This document shows positions 3,781 through 40,559 of a stretch of 46,245 nucleotides of DNA, one piece after another; the stretch's first letter is position 1; each line of letters begins with the position of its first letter. This stretch comes from Paraspadella gotoi (taxonomy: Eukaryota > Animalia > Chaetognatha), in assembly GCA_051294375.1 (NCBI GenBank), contig JBJCIZ010000886.1, positions 1-46,245 of the forward strand. The letters run 5' to 3'. Made by a program: the position numbers and the translations under genes. Under the pieces are notes generated by a model that worked only from the letters and a program-made list of their open reading frames with translations, ran no database searches and was not told the DNA's origin.

Positions 3781-4079
3781 TTTAAAATCGCGAAACATGG
3801 AATTTCGCCAATTTCATTATTGTAATAGAAAAAGATGCGTCTATAAGATAAACCGATGGACAGACATAACATACCGAACAATCTGTCACGTTCCCATCTG
3901 TCCATGAAGATACTTTGGGCTACATAAATTTGTAGACTGACAAGCATATTTTTCTTGTACCTTTGTGTGATATGAGGTTAAGTACAGTTTGAAAAGATTT
4001 CCACTTAAACCCAATGATCAGACAGGCATGTTTCCAATAGGACAGATTTATCGAACGGTTGAATACAGACCGACCTTAC

Positions 4080-4335
4080 CCTCAGCGCCATCGTCGGTTC
4101 CTTCGCCTCAAATCCTCCATTATCGATCCCTTCCTTCTTTTGCGACTTGGTGTGGGCGTGGCTATGGCCGTGGGCGTGCCCGTGGTCGACTTTGTCTCCA
4201 TGGTAATAATTGGCGATGATACAGAAGACTGACTCAACTACGTAGAAGGCATAAATGGCGACTAAGAGAAGAAGCATTTTCCAAACGAAATTGATGTCCT
4301 TTTCGGCGTGAGCATCGTGGTCGGCTTCGTGCGAT
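4080..4335 (-). CDS. ZIP transporter exon (TM3 and His-rich cytoplasmic loop)
   Basis: Part of ORF 4005-4430: SHEADHDAHAEKDINFVWKMLLLLVAIYAFYVVESVF...DHGHAHGHSHAH. Acceptor ctcag, donor GTAAGG, phase 2 in and phase 0 out. Confidence 0.88.
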
Positions 4336-4429
4336 CTGAGATTGAAAGGGGAGGCATGTGAGACGTGTTCTTTGTTTGCAAGGGTGACCAGTGTCCACTG
4401 ACCATGGCAGGGCGGGACACAAAGTAACA

Positions 4430-5437
4430 CGTTTGAGCAAACAATGTCGGATCTGTCTACGATATTTAAGCGGTAATGAGCTAATCAGATGATGAATGAC
4501 GATAATTATTTCGATTTGTGATCATAACAGATCGTACCATACCAAACCAATGGTTGCGCATATATATGTAAAGGATTAAACTTGCAAGGGATTAAACTGA
4601 ACTGTTACTATGGTACAAACAAATAATTTTTTTAACTATTATTATTTTTTTAATTTTAATTTTTTTCAACTTGCACCATTTTTTTTACTCACTCCATTTT
4701 TCCACTTTCACTTTTTTTACTAGCATCATTTTTTTCATTTCGGACATTTTTTAAATTTAATTAATTAATCAATTAATTAACTAATTAAAACATTTATGAG
4801 TAAGCATAAATAATAAAATTTCAAGTCAACTTGACCTTGGTTTTTTTCATGCAAACTCATTTCCACTCCTCGATTCCATCTAAACTTTATATGCTGCTCA
4901 ATCACACACTTTCCTACCCAGTACCCACACACAAAATTTCATCTCATACTATCTTTCCAATTATGAATAATTTTAGTAATTATGGGTAAAAATTATTGTG
5001 TATAAACTATCAATTTCGTTGCGTTTTGAAATTTAGGAGAAAAAACAATTGTTAACAAGGGTTAAAATTAGTAAAAATATTCAAGAAAATGTGACTTATG
5101 TTTTTTTCCATTTAAACTAATTTCCACTTGCACGATTTCATTGAAACTTTATATCCAGGTTCATCACACACATTAATTAGTGTAATTATGGGTTAAAATT
5201 AGTAAAAAGATTCAAGTAAAAGTGACTTATGTTTTTTCTATTTAAACTCATTTCCACTCGAACGATTCAATCAAAACTTTATATCCAGCTCAATCACACA
5301 CTTTCCTATTTCAATTCAATTCAATTCAACCTTTCAATCACGAGTAATTGGAGTTTTTAGCTAAGGAGGGACGGACGGATGGATGGACATCATTTTTTTT
5401 CCATAATTTACCGACGGACCTACAAAGTGAATTATAT
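4430..5437 (+). mobile_element. Helentron/DINE-1-like repeat
   Basis: Begins gtttgagcaaacaatgtcggatctg and contains the family's tandem modules and (GGAC/GGAT)n. Its 5' part recurs inverted at about 26280-26565. Confidence 0.5.
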
Positions 5438-5687: not shown

Positions 5688-8600
5688 TGTTACGAGGCTA
5701 TGGATCTCGCCCCTGCTCAGCAACTTAAGGATAGGAAGGAAGAGAGAGTACCTGAGCTAGTCTTCTCCCCCTGCTCAGCAACCTAAGGATAGGAAGGAAG
5801 AGAGAGGTTCCTCAGCTTGTCTCCTCGCCCCTGCTCCGCAACCTGAGGTTAGGAAGGAAGAGAGAGGTACCTGAGCTAGTCTGCTCGCCATGCTCACCTA
5901 CCTGAGGTTAGGAAGGAAGCGATAGGTACCTGAGCAAGTTTTTCTCGTCACTCCTCTGCTATGTCAGCTATCTCAGCATAGATCATCTAATGAGAAGTTG
6001 GCGGGAAAACAGAAGAACCAATGACAAGCTTGCACACCTCAGCAAGAAGAGAGAGGAGGAAAGAGAGAATCTCAGATATCACAGCCCTCAGCCAATAGGA
6101 GAGAGAGGAGAGCTGAGGGTCCTCAAGGGGTACTCAGAGTTCCTTAGCCTTGCACCAATGAGATGCTCTATTTTATGTAGATGAGGAGGAGGGTAGGCTA
6201 GGTTTTTCTATAAAAAGGAGTGTAACAAGGCTTCTGGGGGCAGTTCAGCGGCCTCCCAAGAAGAAAGAAGAACAACTGCGCCCCAGCAAGACCAATGGAC
6301 CTCAGGACTCAGGATCATAGAGGAACTATGCCCAAATCTCCCTGGATAGGAAATCCTTGCCTGGCAACGGCCCTCACTGTTGGAAATAAAGGATGCTAAT
6401 AAACTACAAATAAAACTCTAATAAAACGTTTTTCCTGATAGGAAAAAGTAGCTACTGGGTAGTTGTAGGATTGATCTTTTTTGGGCGGCCGAAATCCGCA
6501 ACATCTGGCGCCCAATGTGGCTCTCCACACGCCCAAAAGTGGATAAAATCCTGGATGGAAATTTCTTCAAAAATTTGCTTTACATCAACTTGGGGAAAAT
6601 TTATAAATTTTATGTCAAATTGGCACTTAAATGAAAATTTTAAAAAACTGAAAAGTTGTAACATTAAAAAGTTGAAATATTTAAATGTTGAAAGCAGAAA
6701 AATTGAAATGTTGAAAATTGAGAAGTTGAAAAAATTGAAAAGTTGAAAGATTGAAAGATACAAAATTTTCAAACAAATAATCCAAAAGCTTTTAAAAAAA
6801 TGTTTATGAAATAACAAAAAGTAAAAAGTAAAAATCATAATAATTAAAATCATAATCTTTTAATTTTGAAAGAATCTCTGTTTCTTAACGCGTAAATCGT
6901 ACCAGTGCAATTGGCAGGAAAACGTCGTTCGCGTCTCAAGTTTCACTTGAAATTCTATGTTTCTTTTTGTTTTGGTGGGAAATGGTAGGTTTATACGAAA
7001 TGGCCAAAAAAAAAAAAAAAAATCATAATTTTCTTTTAAAATTTTCAAGTGCCAGGTTCATCGTCTTTCGGAATCTACATTTGTTTACTTCTTTCTAACC
7101 ATGGACCCCCAACAAAAGGAAACCATAGGCTTTGACGGTCTCTTGCTGCCGCGAAAAATGGAATGGGAATCATCTTTCCTTCGTCGATCGTCAGCTCTGA
7201 CCAAAGAGCTGAGAAGGGTGATCGCTACTGCCGAATAGCACCCATCGGACTCGTGGATTTCGATTTGTCTCGTATTTGGCTTTGAATGTAAAAATGTAAA
7301 ATTCTAAAATAAAATCAAAATTGAATCTGAAATAAACATCTTTAAAAACGAAAAATGAAAAATAAAGGAGAATTTCGGGAATAACTTGTGTGAAGAAATT
7401 AAAATATTTTTTCAACGTCTCTCTCTAAAATTAAAAATAATTTTATGGAAGGTTTAATTTACAGAAAATAACTCCAGCGCAATGTTGAAAAAATAAAAAA
7501 AAATAATAAGAAAAGTGTAATCAACCTTTTGTTGGTGGTAGGGATTAAGGAGTCACTGGATTTCTTTGGAAGGGCCCATCCTGCGATTCTACACATCTGG
7601 CAACTTTCCATCAACGTGTGATTTGTATGATGCTAAAGTATGGTTGTTTTCTTGGTGGTCAAGATGGATGTTTTGAAACTTAAATTTAAAATTCCTGCGC
7701 AGGTGGATTCTGGAGAAAATTCTTGGCCAAGTGTGAATTTTCGGCCCGTGAAGCCGTGGACTGAGGATTAAAGATTATTCATCAAATTTGAAAATCCAGG
7801 TGTAGTGACACCTGATGGGGCGTGAAGTTAAAATTAAAGTGTATGCCATCCAGGAAGGAGAGATATTAAGTGAAAAATGACGCCAGTTGACGTCACCACA
7901 AAAATAGAAAAAATAATAAATACCAAATAAAAATAAACACTGAAACAAATTTGGATCTCAAGGACGCACATCAAAGAGAATTTAATTGGAAATAATCTGA
8001 AACTTGGAAATAAAGGAGGAAAGCCCTCACAGAAAGGCTTTGAGGATCTAACAAAATTGCTCAACGGTTATCAAAAGATATTGAACTCATTCACAATGAA
8101 TTTCATCCTCAAAAGGAAACTACTTCAGCAGAAAATAAACTAAAATCTCTTCACTGTGGAAAAACTCTTTTTAAGGATCACTACTACAGAATTTTGGTCG
8201 GGGAGAAACTCACTAAAGGGAAATCAAATCAAAATTTCTTCACTGGACTATTCTGATCAAGCAGAACCAACAAGAACAAGAGAATCAAATAGAAATCTTT
8301 CATTGTGAACAAACCCTGGTCGGGAGAGACTGCTTCAGAGCATAACTAAACAACAAGGATTAATTGGACAACAAGAAGTCCCATCTCATCAAATCTGGAG
8401 CCAATCATTGGAAAGATCCTGGTCGGGGAGTTTATCATCCATTTCCAACATTCTGGTCAAGGAGAAGCCACCATTGAGGAAAGTCTGCAGTGTGGAGAAA
8501 AAGAAAAATTCTCATATCAAGGATGTGGAAAATCTATAAATCTCACCTTTTGAGAAATCTTGGTCGGGGAGAAGCAGTCTCAAGAAGTTTATCAATCAAG

Positions 8601-9670
8601 CAATCCATGGGAAAAATGGAAAAAACTCATCAAATTCTGTGAAGATTCTGATTTTATTTGATTTGATACATATTCAAGTATCCTTCTGTGTTACTTGATT
8701 CTGTCACTTACCTCATAAGATTGTGTCTCTGTTTTTACAGGTAAGTTTTTGAAATTGTGTCTCTGTAATTTCTTTTCTTTTTTTGTTGAAATGAATATTT
8801 TTTTGTAGCAGGTGCCGTTGCCAAGTCATAGGTTTTTTTAGTTTTGGGGACCAAAACCGGGTGGTCGGGGAGGATGTTACGAGGCTGGGATCTCGCCCCT
8901 GCTCAGCAACTTAAGGATAGGAAGGAAGAGAGAGGTACCTGAGCTAGTCTTCTCGCCCCTGCTCAAGCACCTAAGGATAGGAAGAAGAGAGAGGTTCCTC
9001 AGCTTGTCTCCTCGCCTGCTCCGCAACCTGAGGTTAGGAAGGAAGAGAGAGGTACCTGAGCTAGTCTGCTCGCCCTGCTCACCTACCTGAGGTTAGGAAG
9101 GAGACGATAGGTACCTGAGCAAGTTTTCTCGTCACTCCTCTGCTATGTCAGCTATCTCAGCATAGATCATCTAATGAGAAGTTGGCGGGAAAACAGAAGA
9201 ACCAATGACAAGCTTGCACACCTCAGCAAGAGAGAGAGGAGGAAAGAGAGATCTCAGATATCACAGCCCTCAGCCAATAGGAGAGAGAGGAGTAGAGCTA
9301 TCAGGTTCCTTAGCCTTGCACCAATGAGATGCTCTATTTTATGTAGATGAGGAGGAAGGGTAGGCTAGGTTTTTCTATAAAACGGAGTGTAAACAAGGCT
9401 TCTGGGGGCAGTTCAGCGGCCTCCCAAGAAGAAAGAAGAACAACTGCGCCCCAGCAAGACCAATGGACCTCAGGACTCAGGATCATAGAGGAACTATGCC
9501 CAAATCTCCCTGGATAGGAAATCCTTGGCCTGGCAACGGCCCTCACTGTGGAAATAAAGGATGCTAATAAACTACAAATAAAACTCTAATAAAACGTTTT
9601 TCCTGATAGGAAAAAGTAGCTACTGGGTAGTTGTAGGATTGATCTTTTTTGCGGCCCGAAATCCGCAACA
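5688..9670 (+). mobile_element. Non-coding LTR retroelement (LARD-like)
   Basis: LTRs at 5688-6503 and 8875-9670 (TG...CA). TSD CAGGT at 5683-5687 and 9671-9675. PBS TGGCGCCCAATGTGG at 6506 (tRNA-Lys type) and PPT ggtggtcggggagga before the 3' LTR. U3 has about 59-bp tandem repeats, plus TATA-like and AATAAA signals. No recognisable gag/pol ORF. Confidence 0.92.
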
Positions 9671-13029: not shown

Positions 13030-14080
13030 TGATAGTGCCTAGTCGGATCTAGCCAAAATCATTTTGGGTAATTAATTAATTAATTAATTAATAATTAATT
13101 CAAGTTAATTAATTATTTAAATAATTGTTTAATTAATTAAATAATTAATTAATAAATAATTAATTCAAGTTAATTAAATATTTTTTAATTAATAATTAAT
13201 TTATTCAAGTTAATTATTTAATTAATTAGGCAATTAATCAATTAATTTGATCCGAAATGTTTGTTTTTGATTGATTAATTGACTGATTAATTATTGATTA
13301 ATTATTTGACTAATTGATTAATTATTTGATTAATTAATACATTTTAAATTTAAATTTAAAATAAAAAGAACAAGAAGCATAATCAATTAGTGAAACAGGT
13401 TCTTTGTTTTTTCCATTTAAACTCATTTCTACTCAAACGATTCCATGGAAACTTGATTTCCAGTTTAATCACCTACTTTTCTACAAAATTTCAAGTCAAT
13501 CACCCCATCCACTCATGAGTTTTTGGTATTCAAATAGTGAAATAAATTTTTTTGTTTTTTCCATTTAAACTCATTTTCACTCGGACGATTCCATCGAAAC
13601 TTCATATACAGCTCAATCACACACTTCCCTACCCACACACAAAATTTCATTCTAATCCATCCATCCAATCACGAGTAATTGGTGTTTTTTGCTGATTTGG
13701 GACGGACGGACGGATGGATGGACGGACATCGTTTTTTTTGCATAATTTATCATAATTGGATGTTCTGACATGATATAAGTGAATGCTCGACAAGATTGAG
13801 GGGGCGGACCGACGGACTGACTAAGTGAATTATAGAGTCGGGATCTGCTGAAAGCAGAGCCGACTAAAAATGATGTCCGACATTGTCCATCTATCCATCT
13901 GTCCGTCCGTCCCTCCTTAGCATTAAACTCCAATTACTCGTGATTAGTTGGTTGCATTAGAATGAAATTTTGTGTGTGGGTGCGAAAGTGTGTGATTGAG
14001 CAGGATATTAAGTTTCGATGGCATTGTGCGAGTGGAAATGAATTTAAATGAAAAAAAAACAAAAGTCACATTTACTTAAA
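13030..14080. mobile_element. Helentron/DINE-1-like repeats (forward copy to about 13870, then an inverted fragment)
   Basis: (AATT)n-like tract, family modules, (GGAC)n and terminal hairpin gggatctgctgaaagcagagccgact. Confidence 0.55.
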
Positions 14081-14819: not shown

Positions 14820-15027
14820 GTGGATAAGGAGAGAGATCGTCTCACTTCTTTTCTACTTCTCTTACATCTTACAATTCTTTACCTTTTTTCCTACCTTTAT
14901 TTTCTCATATTTTTGTCATATTATCGTAGGCAGATCCGACATTGTATACTCAAACTTGTTTTAAGTTTAGTTAAGTTTTGAGTCACATGCTGGTCAGATA
15001 CCGCATTATCCCCCTCAACCAACTGAC

Positions 15028-15315
15028 TCGTGACTATGCAGTCCTAGCGAGATGGGAATAAGATGCAACAGGGAGTCCCCCAACATGGTCCCAATCGCCA
15101 AGCAAATCAGGCTCGATATGACGCTTTGGAAAAAGCTCTTTCCCATCAGCGGAACAACGAGGATCCCGATGAGAGAAATTAGGGTCACGATCAAGGTCGC
15201 CAGGAATCCGTAGCCGTAAATCTCCGAGAGAGACTTCTCCGTAGGCGGAGGCGTGGTTGCCTTTTTGGGGACACAGACGCCAGTAACGGCCTGTTGGATT
15301 AGGGCCGGGCAGAGG
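15028..15315 (-). CDS. ZIP transporter exon (PAL motif, TM1-TM2)
   Basis: Manual translation: LCPALIQQAVTGVCVPKKATTPPPTEKSLSEIYGYGFLATLIVTLISLIGILVVPLMGKSFFQSVISSLICLAIGTMLGDSLLHLIPISLGLHSH. CPALxxQ and LAIGTxxGDxxLHLIP are hallmark LIV-1 motifs. Acceptor cag, donor GTCAGT, phases 2/2. Confidence 0.92.
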
Positions 15316-15492
15316 CTGTTGGGCAGAGAAGAGGAATAATCAATTTGCGACCAGATTAGTTTGATTTGATATATTGAATGATTTGACTGATTGATTTATT
15401 AAATGTTTAATTGAAGGTTTTGAAAAGACAGAATAATTGTTATGAGTTAGTGACAGAACGGTTCTACATAATATATATATTATGGTTGACTA

Positions 15493-16767: not shown

Positions 16768-18240
16768 AAACAAGTTTGAGCAAACAATGTCGGATCTGCC
16801 CACGATCATTATCGGTAATTAATTTATTAATAATTAAATAATTCAAGTTAATTAATTAATTAGTCAATTAATTAATTAATTTGATCCCAAATGTTTGTTT
16901 TTAGGTCTTTTCGTCACTAACCACGATAAAAGCAATGACGACGATGAGAATAATGTCGATAACAATTGACTTGATTGATTGACTGATTAATTAATTATTC
17001 ATTAATTAATTGACTAATTGATTAATTAATTGATTAATTATTTAATTTAATAATACATTCTGCATTTACATTTAATATAAAAGGAAAAAGAAGCATAATC
17101 AATTAGTGAAACAGGTTTTTTGTTTTTTTTCCATTTAAACTCATTTCCACTCAAACGATTCCATCGAAACTTGATTTCCAGTTTAATCACACACTTTTCT
17201 ACCCAAATACAAAATTTCAAGTCAATCGCCCCATCCACTCATGAGTAATTGGTGTTCAAATAGTGAAATATAAATTTTTGTTTTTTCCATTTAAACTCAT
17301 TTCCACTTGGACGATTCCATCGAAACTTCACATACAGCTCAATCACACACTTCCCTACCCACACACAAAATTTCATTCCAATGCATCCATCCAATCACGA
17401 GTAATTGGTATTTTTTGCTAAGCTGGGATGGACGGATGGACGGACGGACGGACGGACGGACGGACGGACGGACATCGTTTTTTTGGCATAATTTATCATA
17501 ATTCGATGTTCTGACATGATATAAGTGAGTGAAATTTTGTATTTGGGTAGAAAAGTGTGTGATTCAACTGGAAATCAAGTTTCGATGGAATCGTTTGAGT
17601 GGAAATGAGTTTAAATGGAAAAAACAAAGAACCTATTTCACTAATTGATTATGCTTCTTTTTCTTTTTATTTTAAATGTAAATGCAAGATGTATTAATTA
17701 ATCAAATAATTAATCAGTTAATTAATCAATTAGTCAATTAATTAATCAATAATTAATTAATCAGTCAATAAATCAATCAAAACAAACATTTCTGATCAAA
17801 TAAATTAATTAATTGCCTAATTAATTAAACAATTAACTTGAATAAATTAATTATTAATTAAATAATTAACTTGAGTTAATTAATTATTAATTAAATAAGT
17901 AATTAACTTGAGTTAATTTTTAATTAATTATTAATTAATTAATTACCGATAATGATCGTGGGCAGATCCGACATTGTTTGCTCAAAGTTGTTTCCATTTA
18001 AACTCATTTCCACTCACACGATTCCATCGAAACGTTATATCCAGCTCACACTTTTCTAATTACACAAAAAATCTAATTCCAATCCATCCATCTAATCACA
18101 TGTAATTGGAGTGTTTTGCTAAGGTGGGACGGACAGACAGACGGAAATCATTTTTTTTGCATAATTTATCATAATTCGATGTTCTGACTTGATATAAGTG
18201 AATGCCCGACAAGATTGGGGGGGCGGACCGACGGAACGTT
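16768..18240. mobile_element. Cluster of Helentron/DINE-1-like copies (forward, inverted, forward)
   Basis: 5' end aacaagtttgagcaaacaatgtcggatctgccc at 16769 and its reverse complement at about 17960-17992, with (GGAC)n and family modules. Confidence 0.55.
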
Positions 18241-33199: not shown

Positions 33200-34316
33200 T
33201 TCAACTTGCATTCCGTCAAAAACTTTATATCTAGCTTCTTCACTCACTTTCCTACTGGCTCACAAAAATTTCATCTCAATCTATCATGGGTTAAAATAAA
33301 TAAAAAGATTCAAGTAAATGTGACTCATATTTTTTTCATTTAAACTCATTTCCACTGGTTACGTTCGCGCTGAAACTTTTATCAAGCTTCGTCACACATT
33401 TTCCTACCCACACACAAAATTTCAACTCAATCTATCCATCCAATTATGATTAATTAGAGTATTTATTGGTTAAAATAAGGTAAAAAGATTTTAGTAAATT
33501 CGACTTATGTTTCTTCCATTTAAACTAATTTCCACTCACACGATTCCATCGAAACTTTATATCCAGCTTTATCACACACTTTCCTACTCACACACAAAAT
33601 TTAATTCCAATCCAACCAGCCAATCACGAGTTATTGGAGCTTTTTGCTAAGATGGGACGGATGGACGGATTGATTGACTAATTAATTAATTATTGATTAA
33701 TTTATTTACTAATTATTAATTAATGATTAATTATTTGATTTATTAATACATCCTGCATATACATTGTAATATAAAAGGAAAAAGAACCATAATCAATTAG
33801 TAAAACAGGTTTTTTGTTTTTTTCCATTTAAACTCATTTCCACTCAAACTATTCCATCGAAACTTGATTTCCTGTTCAATCACACACTTTCCTACCCATA
33901 CAAAATTCCAGGTCAATCAGCCCATCCACTCATGAGCAATTGGTGTTCAAAATAGTGAATATATTTTTTTTGTTTTTTCCATTTAAACTCATTTCCACTC
34001 GGACGATTCCATCGAAACTTCATATCCAGCCTCAATCACACACTTACCTATCCTCACACAAAATTTCATTTAAATCCATCCATCCAATCACGAGTAATTG
34101 GTGTTTTTTGCTAAGGTGGGCGGACGGACGGACGACGGCGGACGGACGACGAGAACAGACGGACGACGGACATCATTTTTTTTTGCATAATTTTTCATAA
34201 TTCGATGTTCTGACATGATATAAGTGTGTGCCCGACAATATTGAGGGGGCGGACCGACGGACCGACAAAGTGAGTTATAGAGTCGGGATCTGCCTGATAA
34301 GCAGATCGACTAAAAA
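33200..34316 (+). mobile_element. Helentron/DINE-1-like repeat
   Basis: Tandem family modules, (GGAC)n and terminal hairpin gggatctgcctgataagcagatcgact. Confidence 0.55.
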
Positions 34317-38133: not shown

Positions 38134-39399
38134 TTAGGACTTATCGAGATGTTTCAGCACAAAACCTCCGGGATAACCGTAGCTTTTAGAGTTGTAGCTG
38201 GTCGTTCCGTATCCATACACTGTCACTCCGATCGTGTAACCGTCTTTTGCTTTCACCACATGAGTTCCGAAATTGACCTAAAAATCGTTTATTTAGGGAC
38301 ACACAGAATTTAAAACACTAAATAAGATTCCTTAAAAAACATTACAATATAGTTTCTAAAAATTAAAGAAATATAAAGAGAAGCAAATTTTATTATTGTT
38401 ACGAATAAAAAAAGCTTTTTTTTCCTCTGTATTAAAAACGCAACGAAACCAAAGTCGAAACAATTTCTACAAATAACCATAACCATAACCCAGATGCTCT
38501 TTTTGTCTCCCGTTTAAGAGAAATATTGTCAATATTATTGACTTTCGGCTCACTGTCCAATTCTTGTGATCATTCGGGATTTGACATTTGGATCAGACTC
38601 TTCAGACTAAATTTGTTTGGACAGCTTCTGTGCTTTTACATAATTACTCCGTGTTTCTTCTGCGATCACTTATGTTCTGTTATTTTTATTTATTGTTAGT
38701 AGTATTATTGTTTGATTATTATTATTGTCTGTATGAATATCTATATGCTTTGATTATTTTATTAAGGTACCATTAAATATCAAGACTCCAAGTGGATAAG
38801 AAACTTATAAACTTTACGGCGCCAGCGGTCCCGGTCTTCAGTCCAGTTTCTCTCCCGACGTCTTCTCCCTCTCCGCTAGGTCGAGGAGGGAGTTCTTCAA
38901 TTAACCAATTTTAAATTAATCTCACCTGTAAAACTACAGCATAATATTCAGAATCCGGCGCTTTTTTCCAACTCGCGCCGTCCGCATAAACCGTTTCATT
39001 GATCATTGCAAATTTATAGTTAGATACTATCTGTAATTGTATGAAAAAAAAGATTTTTCAAAGTTTAAATAGAAAATCTAGTAAAGTGTGTTATGTATTT
39101 ACCTGTATAAAGTGCTTAGTAGCGTATGATTCATCTATATATGGCATTATCACAGATATTTCCTTAGAAAATTGTTCTATGGCGGGTACAAGCATCATTG
39201 TAGGCATAAACGTTTCATCTGACTCTTTTTTGTATTTAGTAAATCGTACGACGAGGCAGGGCTTGAAGCAATGTATTACAATCAAATCTCCGGAAGAAAT
39301 GTCTGTCATTAAAAAGTAAACAAGTTTTTCTTTTTCCAATCAGTTAAATTCGCTCTTAATACCCACCCCAAAGCAAGTTGAAATTTTTAATTGTACTAT
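38134..39399 (-). pseudogene. IgGFc-binding-protein N-terminal-like domain gene, 3' exons (39103-39399, 38926-39030, 38134-38277); possibly a pseudogene
   Basis: Phase-0 GT-AG splicing gives ...PTMMLVPAIEQFSKE...HFIQ|IVSNYKFAMINETVYADGASWKKAPDSELYAVVLQ|VNFGTHVVKAKDGYTIGVTVYGYGTTSYNSKSYGYPGGFVLKHLDKS*. The P-x-M-x-x-VP-x-x-EQ, G-x-H, VYG and SYGYPGG motifs fit this domain. There is an in-frame TGA at 39340-39342, and no upstream exons were found. Confidence 0.7.
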
Positions 39400-39618
39400 C
39401 TAGGAAAAAAGTATGACATAATTCATTTATTCAATAAAAAGTATATAAAACATGGGTATTGGGTAAAATATTATGATGACATTCTCAATATTTGGTATAC
39501 CCTTCCTCAGCATTAATTACTGCTTGCCTTTGTTTGGGTATGCTCTTATACAGCAAATTGAGGTATTATAGCAACAGCCGGGTTGCCTGTGATGCCCATT
39601 GGGATGGGGCATCTCACT

Positions 39619-39699
39619 GTTAGCTTTGGGGGCTTCCGACCCTCAGTGACGCCTCCAGTCACTGGCGCGGTTACCCTAGGACGGTCTCGCTTTGCCAAC
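39619..39699 (-). ncRNA. P5-type twister ribozyme (TRIM-B 3' LTR)
   Basis: GUUGGC(P5)-AAA-GCGA(P2')-GA-CCG-UCCUAGGG(P1)-UAA-CCGC(P2)-GCC-AGUGAC/UGGAGGC/GUCACU(P3)-GA-GGG-UCGGAAGC-CCCC-AAA-GCUAAC(P5'). T1 is CGG/CCG and T2 is GC/GC. Confidence 0.75.
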
Positions 39700-40107
39700 G
39701 CAGAGGGAAGTCTTTAGGACTGTGGATGGAACACTACGCTTAGGATGGTGTGTTCCCCCTCTGAACCAATGTATTTGGCTGAAGGATGGTGGACGTGAGG
39801 CGGTATGAATATACCGCCACAGGATCCCTGGGCCAAGACATCACTCAGGTTCCTCAAGCCTGAGAGGTGTCTGACAAGACTGTTACCATAGTGGGAGAGA
39901 GAGAGAGAGCGCGAGATGTGGGGGCATAGGCGTTTGTCGTAGCGTACCCCAGGGGCATAGGCGTTTGTCGTAGCGTACCCGAAGTTGGCAGGGCATAGGC
40001 GTTTGTCGTAGCGTACCCTGAGAAGGTTGCGTGTTCGATAGTAGGGCTCACCACTTATGGCAACAGCCGGGTTGCCTGTGATGCCCATTGGGATGGGGCA
40101 TCTCACT

Positions 40108-40188
40108 GTTGGCTTTGGGGGCTTCCGACCCTCAGGGACGCCTCCATTCACTGGCGCGGTTACCCTAGGACGGTCTCGCTTTGCCAAC
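40108..40188 (-). ncRNA. P5-type twister ribozyme (TRIM-B 5' LTR)
   Basis: Same core with a perfect P5 (GUUGGC/GCCAAC) and two substitutions weakening P3. The predicted cut 40162/40161 is 489 nt from the other copy. Confidence 0.72.
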
Positions 40189-40559
40189 GCAGAGGGAAGT
40201 CGTTAGGACTGTGGATGGAACACTACGCCTGGGATGGTGTGTTCCCCCTCTGAGCCAATGTATTTGGCTGAAGGATGGTGGACGTGAGGCGGTGTGAATA
40301 TACCGCCACAGTATGACAGTAAAATGTTTGACATCTTTAACGCAATTCTGCGCAGCCCCGATATTAATGTTGCGAATCTTTCTTTCTTTTCTGAGAGCTA
40401 TAATAATATTTTTTAACCAGAAAGTGGTGCAAGGCCTTTAGCATTGTCAAATTAAAAAATTATTTAAAAAATCTTAAAAGCATAAAGATCGAGCCGCTTT
40501 CGGAGGCGGCCTCAGATATAATGGCTACGTCATGCGCAAACGACCAAAACTGGGAGGAC

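Follow-up and report, generated by a model that had tools for sequence, protein, structure and literature searches.

In the 46,245-bp contig JBJCIZ010000886.1 of the chaetognath Paraspadella gotoi (assembly GCA_051294375.1), which as a whole is called the window here, we found a miniature terminal-repeat element of 744 bp whose two long terminal repeats (LTRs) each carry a twister-like ribozyme motif. As judged from its letters, each repeat holds every sequence and pairing feature of a twister in the P5-permuted order, and the twister pattern is statistically non-random. The element is tentatively read as an old copy of a protein-free terminal-repeat retroelement with one P5-permuted twister motif per repeat and a retrozyme-type cycle that would pass through an RNA of 489 nt; this is the reading that we place first, a little short of calling it probable. 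The element had been pointed out before by a model from the letters of the window (the original prediction). Its parts are as follows.

39567-40310, sense strand minus: the element, 744 bp, miniature, with terminal repeats, taken as non-coding.
40056-40310, minus: upstream (5') terminal repeat, 255 bp, with TGTGGC at the start, GCCATA at the end and TATA at repeat positions 9-12.
39567-39821, minus: downstream (3') terminal repeat, 255 bp, with TGTGGC at the start and GCTATA at the end.
39822-40055, minus: internal region, 234 bp, unique and taken as non-coding.
39563-39566 (left) and 40311-40314 (right): target-site duplication GTAT, an identical 4-mer directly outside the repeat ends.
40036-40053, minus: stretch like a primer-binding site (PBS), TGGTGAGCCC, with TGG at its start, 2 nt past the upstream repeat, read from the sequence.
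39921-40018: a 29-nt unit of the internal region, present three times; on the sense strand every copy is predicted to fold into a small hairpin.
39894-39909: (GA)n / (CU)n microsatellite in the internal region.

The two 255-bp repeats were aligned with nine mismatches and no gap (96.5% identity), and their ends form a terminal inverted repeat in five of six positions (TGTGGC/GCCATA) with TG at the start. The internal region opens on the minus strand with AG followed by TGGTGAGCCC, and its TGG at +3 lies at the putative primer-binding position. The GC content of the element is 56.6% as against 34.9% in the flanks (1 kb per side). The features of a terminal-repeat retrotransposon in miniature (TRIM), namely a size below 1 kb, two LTRs, a target-site duplication and no protein, were all found in these 744 bp. 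The hairpins of the 29-nt unit might serve as a protein-binding or packaging signal. The longest reading frame (39714-40202, minus) is free of stops over 162 codons and corresponds to exactly one 489-nt unit; each turn holds a single stop, which falls at the same position of the repeat, and there is a single internal AUG. No Pfam match was obtained for this frame, and no relative was found either among proteins of 89-284 aa or in an exhaustive phmmer search against 1.84 billion representatives. With its single internal AUG and no relatives, the frame is regarded as a by-product of the high GC content, and the element is taken as non-coding. The anatomy put forward in the original prediction (744 bp, 255-bp LTRs, a 4-bp target-site duplication, a PBS-like site and no coding capacity) agreed with these checks of the repeats, of GTAT, of the TGG and of the frame. 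A search of the literature full text for the 10-mer of the PBS-like site returned unrelated primer lists only. The plus strand was rejected as the sense strand, as no TGG lies within 7 nt past the repeat there and no twister features are present on it.

The twister-like motif occupies positions 123-203 of the 255-bp repeat, downstream of the TATA at position 9, on the sense strand defined by the PBS-like site. Its parts are given below for the downstream copy unless stated otherwise.

39619-39699, minus: twister-like motif of the downstream repeat, the better kept copy, 81 nt.
40108-40188, minus: twister-like motif of the upstream repeat, with the predicted cut between U40162 and A40161.
39699-39694 (P5, GUUGGC) with 39624-39619 (P5', GCUAAC), minus: P5, 6 bp.
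39690-39687 (P2', GCGA) and 39670-39667 (P2, CCGC), minus: the two strands of P2.
39686-39685 (GA) and 39684-39682 (T1', CCG), minus: GA with the T1 partner after it.
39681-39674, minus: self-complementary P1 segment UCCUAGGG, 8 nt, between T1' and the scissile U.
39673-39671 and, in the upstream copy, 40162-40160, minus: cleavage loop UAA, with the predicted cut of the downstream copy between U39673 and A39672.
39666-39664, minus: GCC, directly after P2.
39663-39645, minus: P3 hairpin AGUGAC-UGGAGGC-GUCACU, a perfect 6 bp, flush with GCC.
39642-39640 (P4, GGG) with 39631-39629 (P4', CCC), minus: P4.
39639-39632, minus: L4 UCGGAAGC (U-CGG-AAGC).
39673-40161, minus: predicted released RNA of 489 nt, length and ends computed from both cuts.

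Read along the minus strand, the order of the motif is P5, AAA, P2', GA, T1', UCCUAGGG, UAA with the cut after its U, P2, GCC, P3, GA, P4, L4, P4', C, AAA and P5', with AAA on both sides of P5 in the motif of each repeat. The CGG of L4 is complementary to the CCG that follows GA, as in the T1 pseudoknot. In the description by Roth and colleagues of 2014 and in crystal structures, T1 is reportedly formed by the L4 triplet and the one that follows GA, and T2 by AAGC and GCC. The presence of two pseudoknots, T1 and T2, in the twister is also stated in the cited passages of PMC8501958. When compared with the Rfam twister-P1 consensus, the unpaired conserved letters UAA, GCC, U..AAGC and GA are all intact, and the departures at strongly conserved positions all fall in pairs and are all compensated (two pairs in T1, one in P2 and the outer one of P4), so that T1 is CGG:CCG as against CCC:GGG in the consensus. 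In the order of the parts and in the core letters (GA, T1 partner, UAA, P2, GCC, P4 and an L4 that ends in AAGC) the motif is like Twister type P5 (Rfam RF02684, clan CL00120), from which it differs by the CGG:CCG T1, the presence of a P3 hairpin, a C-A mismatch in P2 and a score that does not reach the Rfam threshold. The two copies of the motif differ by three changes, of which two break P3 pairs in the upstream copy (two of six lost) and one turns the fourth P5 pair from G-U to G-C.

How often such a pattern arises by chance was estimated with a descriptor built on features of published twisters, namely TAA, a 4-nt P2 with at least three pairs, GCC, a 3-bp P4, an L4 of the form U-NNN-AAGC, and GA with three nucleotides behind it that are the Watson-Crick complement of NNN. 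A match could be of the P1 or the P5 permutation, could have gaps as long as 45 and 60 nt and could contain one P2 mismatch; the pattern amounts to 13 fixed letters and 9-10 required pairs. On both strands of the 46-kb window the descriptor matched the two repeat copies only. No match was obtained in 20 Mb of first-order Markov sequence with the composition of the window, nor in another 20 Mb with the composition of the element. The zero count in window-composition sequence puts the chance expectation per window under about 0.014 (95% confidence), a specificity that is somewhat inflated in appearance by the descriptor having been written after the candidate was seen. The descriptor was also negative on all four metagenome loci, on eight bacterial loci with a 21-letter half-pattern and on 108 viral loci that match the half made of L4 plus GACCG; no certified twister with a CGG:CCG T1 was present among these 108. 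Beyond what the descriptor asks for, the motif has P3, P5, the AAA junctions and the self-complementary P1 segment. The P5-permuted twister reading of the original prediction was found correct base for base on the minus strand and non-random by these counts (0 in 40 Mb, 0 of 120 decoy loci), and its particulars held as well: the P2 of 3 bp plus C-A, the CGG:CCG T1, the predicted cuts at 40162/40161 and 39673/39672, and the computed monomer length of 489 nt.

The behaviour of the descriptor on natural twisters was monitored in viral loci. It recovered 69 of the 130 loci fetched by the canonical half-pattern, and all 12 of those 69 that were given to Rfam were twister-P1 matches (51.8-68.3 bits). 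Its sensitivity is incomplete, as two of eight descriptor-negative viral loci run on Rfam were certified Twister-P5 (45.2 and 51.4 bits). These two P5-type phage twisters (L125 and L126) have GCA for GCC, a 3-bp P2 and 8-bp P1 hairpins; they show the same part order and the same GGG/CCC P4 as the candidate, which differs from them in having an 8-nt self-complementary stretch in the place of the 8-bp P1 hairpin. Positive controls were also sought with Twister-P5 in 3 + 151 bacterial genomes, and none was found.

Besides the late origin of the descriptor, a number of results weigh against the retrozyme interpretation of the element. No match at the gathering level was found with Rfam in the window. 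The best match at E ≤ 10 was twister-P1 in the downstream copy, at 24.1 bits where the cut-off is 67.2 (E = 0.017 in a search of 1.1 kb), and the 3' half taken into its alignment fails to pair as T1 requires. The motif copy in the upstream repeat was not reported, and Twister-P5 was never the reported match; a search of 39617-39702 alone gave a truncated P1 match of 16.6 bits. The covariance search with Rfam that had been proposed along with the original prediction was thus at best half passed: the sub-threshold twister-P1 match came out, and the cut-off was missed with Twister-P5 not reported. On the same scale phage twisters score 45-68 bits, and among the 12 given to Rfam the P1 cut-off was reached by two, the other ten lying at 51.8-66.1. 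No hammerhead family was found at E ≤ 10 in 39400-40500. As a separate observation, default Rfam annotation misses most of these 12 phage twister-P1 examples (10 of 12 fall below 67.2).

The folding energies are likewise unfavourable. Forcing P2 and P4 costs 3.7 kcal/mol over the minimum free energy (MFE) in the downstream copy and 6.3 kcal/mol in the upstream one, and the same cost in 46 distinct phage twisters has a median of 0, a 95th percentile of 1.85 and a maximum of 4.1. The z-scores of the 81-nt motif segments are just -1.4 and -1.6. In the MFE folds of the 81-nt and 106-nt segments P5 and P3 were recovered and P2 and P4 were missed, and plain MFE folding therefore neither proves nor excludes the twister fold. 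The P2 of the candidate has only 3 bp and a C-A mismatch, and fewer than four P2 pairs were seen in only one of the 69 descriptor-positive phage loci, the other 68 having four. The motif has taken three of the nine repeat mismatches, two of which break P3, where 2.9 were expected from its length, so that no constraint is visible since insertion. As a hairpin, UCCUAGGG could close a 4-nt loop with two pairs at most, of which one is G-U, and twister cleavage without P1 is described as inefficient in the cited passages of PMC8501958.

On the side of the element as such, the TG...CA ends and the polypurine tract of LTR elements were not found: the repeats run from TG to TA and so terminate in TA instead of CA, and no polypurine tract is present, as purines make up only 7 of the 15 bases at the end of the internal region. 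A tRNA that matches the PBS-like site was not found, there being no tRNA genes in the window and no Rfam tRNA at 39975-40062. Among the 76 open reading frames (ORFs) of at least 75 codons that were scanned in the window, none has a reverse transcriptase (RT), integrase or GIY-YIG domain of an autonomous partner. Searches by exact pattern gave no further copy in metagenome contigs or in viral contigs; in genome contigs eight matches were obtained, where about six are estimated to be expected by chance, and these eight contained no twister family at E ≤ 0.01 and none that agreed with the descriptor. The stop-free frame led to four loci, which share no more than a 36-nt chance match.

UCCUAGGG is self-complementary, with six Watson-Crick pairs and possible G-U pairs at the ends, and the duplex of two copies was computed at -11.0 kcal/mol. 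As it forms no proper hairpin but is self-complementary, cutting would need two copies: two motifs, for example those of both repeats in one transcript, would share P1 through UCCUAGGG, with their 5' parts swapped. Because UCCUAGGG exactly fills the gap from T1' to the cut, each cut site in such a two-motif duplex would get a full P1 helix. The twisters would thus probably act as a pair. If cutting needs two motifs, a circle with a single motif would be spared from re-cutting.

From the arrangement of repeats, motifs and PBS-like site we infer cleavage at both motifs, ring closure, tRNA-primed copying and integration as the steps of the cycle. Transcription would start from the upstream repeat with its TATA or come from read-through, and cuts between U40162 and A40161 and between U39673 and A39672 would release the 489-nt RNA. 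A host RNA ligase could close the ring at its 5'-OH and cyclic-phosphate ends, which follow from the general chemistry of this ribozyme class. The enzymes of an autonomous LTR retrotransposon, primed at the PBS-like site, would copy the circle all the way round and so restore both repeats in full with no need for strand transfers, and the product would be inserted by an integrase that makes 4-bp duplications. When folded as a circle, the 489-nt RNA had an MFE of -162.4 kcal/mol (z = -2.95, 59% paired), and none of 100 shuffled sequences was as stable. In a bolder form, which we hold to be doubtful, the element would be the first member of a group of animal LTR-type retrozymes with a pair-dependent, P1-less twister, in which the two repeat copies of a transcript cut each other and the one-motif circle of 489 nt gives tRNA-primed reverse transcription a template without end. 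The present copy is probably dead, as its repeats differ by 3.5% and P3 of the upstream motif is damaged.

Plant LTR retrozymes carry a type III hammerhead in each LTR, with PBS and polypurine boxes in common with Ty3-gypsy elements (Cervera, Urbina and de la Pena 2016, passages of PMC4918200), and their GC content is given as above 55% in part of PMC7229834. To the extent described in PMC4918200, the element resembles them in being small and non-coding, in the ribozyme motif per repeat, the 4-bp duplication, the high GC content and the PBS-like site after the upstream repeat, and in the unit between the cut sites being a few hundred nt long. It differs from them, by the same passages, in having a P5-permuted twister in place of the type III hammerhead, an animal in place of a plant host, repeats of 255 bp as against 300-400, a unit of 489 nt as against 600-1000, and no polypurine tract, and the circles known there are predicted from sequence here. 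The LTR-retrozyme interpretation of the original prediction is borne out in part, for the anatomy and the twister pattern, and is left short by the sub-threshold Rfam score, the effective loss of the P1 hairpin, the absent polypurine tract and the TA ends. Its background statement, that LTR retrozymes are plant elements with hammerheads and that the animal ones are non-LTR tandem repeats, is in line with the relevant passages of PMC4918200, PMC7229834 and bioRxiv 10.64898/2026.07.22.740005.

Among animal elements, Helenus (Kojima 2024, passages of PMC10886601) is a TRIM that shares the size below 1 kb, the two LTRs, a PBS, 4-bp duplications and the lack of a protein. Its LTRs are described there as carrying a tRNA-derived Pol III promoter, whereas a ribozyme motif is found in those of the present element, which lacks a polypurine tract. 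The non-LTR retrozymes of animals and the pseudo-LTRs of Penelope-like elements, as described in parts of PMC7229834 and PMC8557442, are similar in that direct repeats with a self-cleaving motif bracket a short non-coding unit and in that the ribozyme may work only as a pair. By the descriptions in PMC7229834 and bioRxiv 10.64898/2026.07.22.740005, they differ in having type I hammerheads, low GC content, no PBS and longer or unclear duplications, and the Naiads differ by a (TA)n target preference (cited part of PMC8557442). Against that pattern the element has no hammerhead, a GC content of 56.6%, only 1.52 units in place of tandem arrays, a PBS-like site and a 4-bp duplication. The twister T-variants of the RTE element Perere-3 of Schistosoma mansoni (Liu et al. 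2021, passages of PMC8501958) are comparable in that the RNA of a retrotransposon is processed and a weak or absent P1 is tolerated. They differ in being P1-type and single, at the 5' end of an autonomous non-LTR element and not in terminal repeats, with a P1 that comes from the target duplication.

The main rival to the LTR-type reading is a Penelope/Naiad-type element with pseudo-LTRs, and the LTR-type reading is ahead of it, though not by much. In this rival, which we consider rather unlikely, the element is a non-autonomous Penelope-like derivative of the Naiad type whose pseudo-LTRs come from a tandem insertion of 1.52 units of 489 bp, with the twister in the role of the hammerhead and mobilisation by an RT/GIY-YIG protein of the Penelope type. 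Formally, the succession of LTR, internal region and LTR is indeed 1.52 tandem units of 489 bp, and the absent polypurine tract and the TA end fit better with such an origin. The 5/6 terminal inverted repeat with its TG start and the TGG placed 2 nt past the repeat are explained by no tandem junction, and the clean 4-bp duplication lies at a target that is not a (TA)n microsatellite. Precedents in the cited sources lean towards the rival: Naiads have pseudo-LTRs and no canonical hammerheads, and a non-autonomous Chlamys element was formerly mistaken for an LTR element (both in passages of PMC8557442), and animal retrozymes are reported as Penelope derivatives in part of bioRxiv 10.64898/2026.07.22.740005. 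The GC content of 56.6% is out of line with the value of below 45-50% given for animal non-LTR retrozymes in part of PMC7229834, neither a tail of 30-40 bp nor a truncated copy in inverted orientation is present, and an RT or GIY-YIG domain is encoded by none of the 76 ORFs scanned in the window. Six 10-12-mers of the element were compared with the Naiad/Chlamys consensus file of PMC8557442, a part of that source that was compared by short words only and in which words split at the 70-nt line breaks are missed; two of the six matched once each, where about 0.5 chance matches are expected per 10-mer. One of the two lies in a hammerhead-like Naiad 3' region (CUGAUGA...GAAA) and the other far from the Naiad entries.

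Two further explanations keep the LTR anatomy and change the part of the twister. To an ordinary TRIM with a linear capped transcript, in which the twister pattern is a non-functional resemblance or a long-dead relic, we give a small probability. The sub-threshold Rfam score, the absent P1, the mismatched P2 and the difference between the twister fold and the MFE speak for it, and TRIMs without a ribozyme are known in animals (cited part of PMC10886601). It does not sit well with a pattern that occurred 0 times in 40 Mb of matched random sequence and in 0 of 120 decoy loci, nor with the additional P3, P5, AAA junctions and self-complementary P1 segment. Moreover, a cut inside both repeats would harm a linear LTR cycle, and so the motif on the sense strand calls for an explanation. 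The probability of the other explanation is smaller still: an active twister would serve the processing of ends and not the making of circles, and might free the element RNA from host read-through in the manner of the twister variants at the 5' end of Perere-3. An RTE element has such variants at its 5' end, where they process co-transcripts, according to passages of PMC8501958, and an exon-like ORF with an IgGFc_binding match lies 228 bp away on the strand that is the sense strand of the element. The motif is found in mid-repeat (123-203 of 255) in both repeats and not at an end of the element, and on the standard scheme of LTR reverse transcription cutting would remove the terminal redundancy that the linear cycle needs, so that without ring closure the cut product could not be copied into two-repeat DNA.

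If the retrozyme-type reading with paired twisters is true, the retrozyme lifestyle would have been reached independently with another ribozyme class, the eukaryotic twister would gain a second concrete role beyond the 5' processing of RTE elements, and a natural example of a twister that works only in pairs would be at hand. Retrozymes connect mobile DNA with viroid-like circular RNAs, and those in print are either LTR elements of plants, with type III hammerheads, or tandem repeats of animals, with type I hammerheads. The same division, with LTR retrozymes as type III hammerhead elements of plants and animal retrozymes as non-LTR, is given in the cited part of a text of mid-2026 (bioRxiv 10.64898/2026.07.22.740005). 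In the literature full text, a body mostly without subscription journals, no account of a twister within LTRs or a TRIM was found. Similar elements are likely to have been overlooked in animal genomes, as the current Rfam twister models miss this variant.

Apart from the element, several features of the window were recorded. An exon-like ORF at 39094-39339 on the minus strand matched Pfam IgGFc_binding (E = 6.8e-06, 26.0 bits against a cut-off of 25.6) at a distance of 228 bp from the element. With this ORF near it on its sense strand, the element may be located within a mucin/FCGBP-like gene or next to one, whose transcription may run through it. A ZIP14-like zinc transporter is represented by exons at 15015-15395 and 4005-4484 on the minus strand; they gave two matches in total, the best named relative being from the sea anemone Actinia tenebrosa (46% identity), which suggests that the protein library contains no close relative of the source animal. 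A family of dispersed repeats, each about 150-450 bp long, is found at 32-327, 5094-5363, 13399-13848, 17117-17531 and 33322-34293, often as adjoining pairs about 150 bp apart and beside (GGAC)n-type microsatellites; it looks like a short interspersed nuclear element (SINE) or a miniature inverted-repeat transposable element (MITE) and has 12-14 copies in the window. Paired 113-nt repeats at 5711-5942 and 8898-9127, about 3.07 kb apart, may form a second terminal-repeat element and contain no match to the twister descriptor. Finally, in the part of the supplement of PMC8557442 that was compared, the 3' untranslated end of the Naiad consensus that precedes Naiad_Mley contains the words CUGAUGA and CGAAAC flanked by a 9-bp long-range helix, a core that is hammerhead-like in an unusual order and belongs to a group reported in that source as being without canonical hammerheads.

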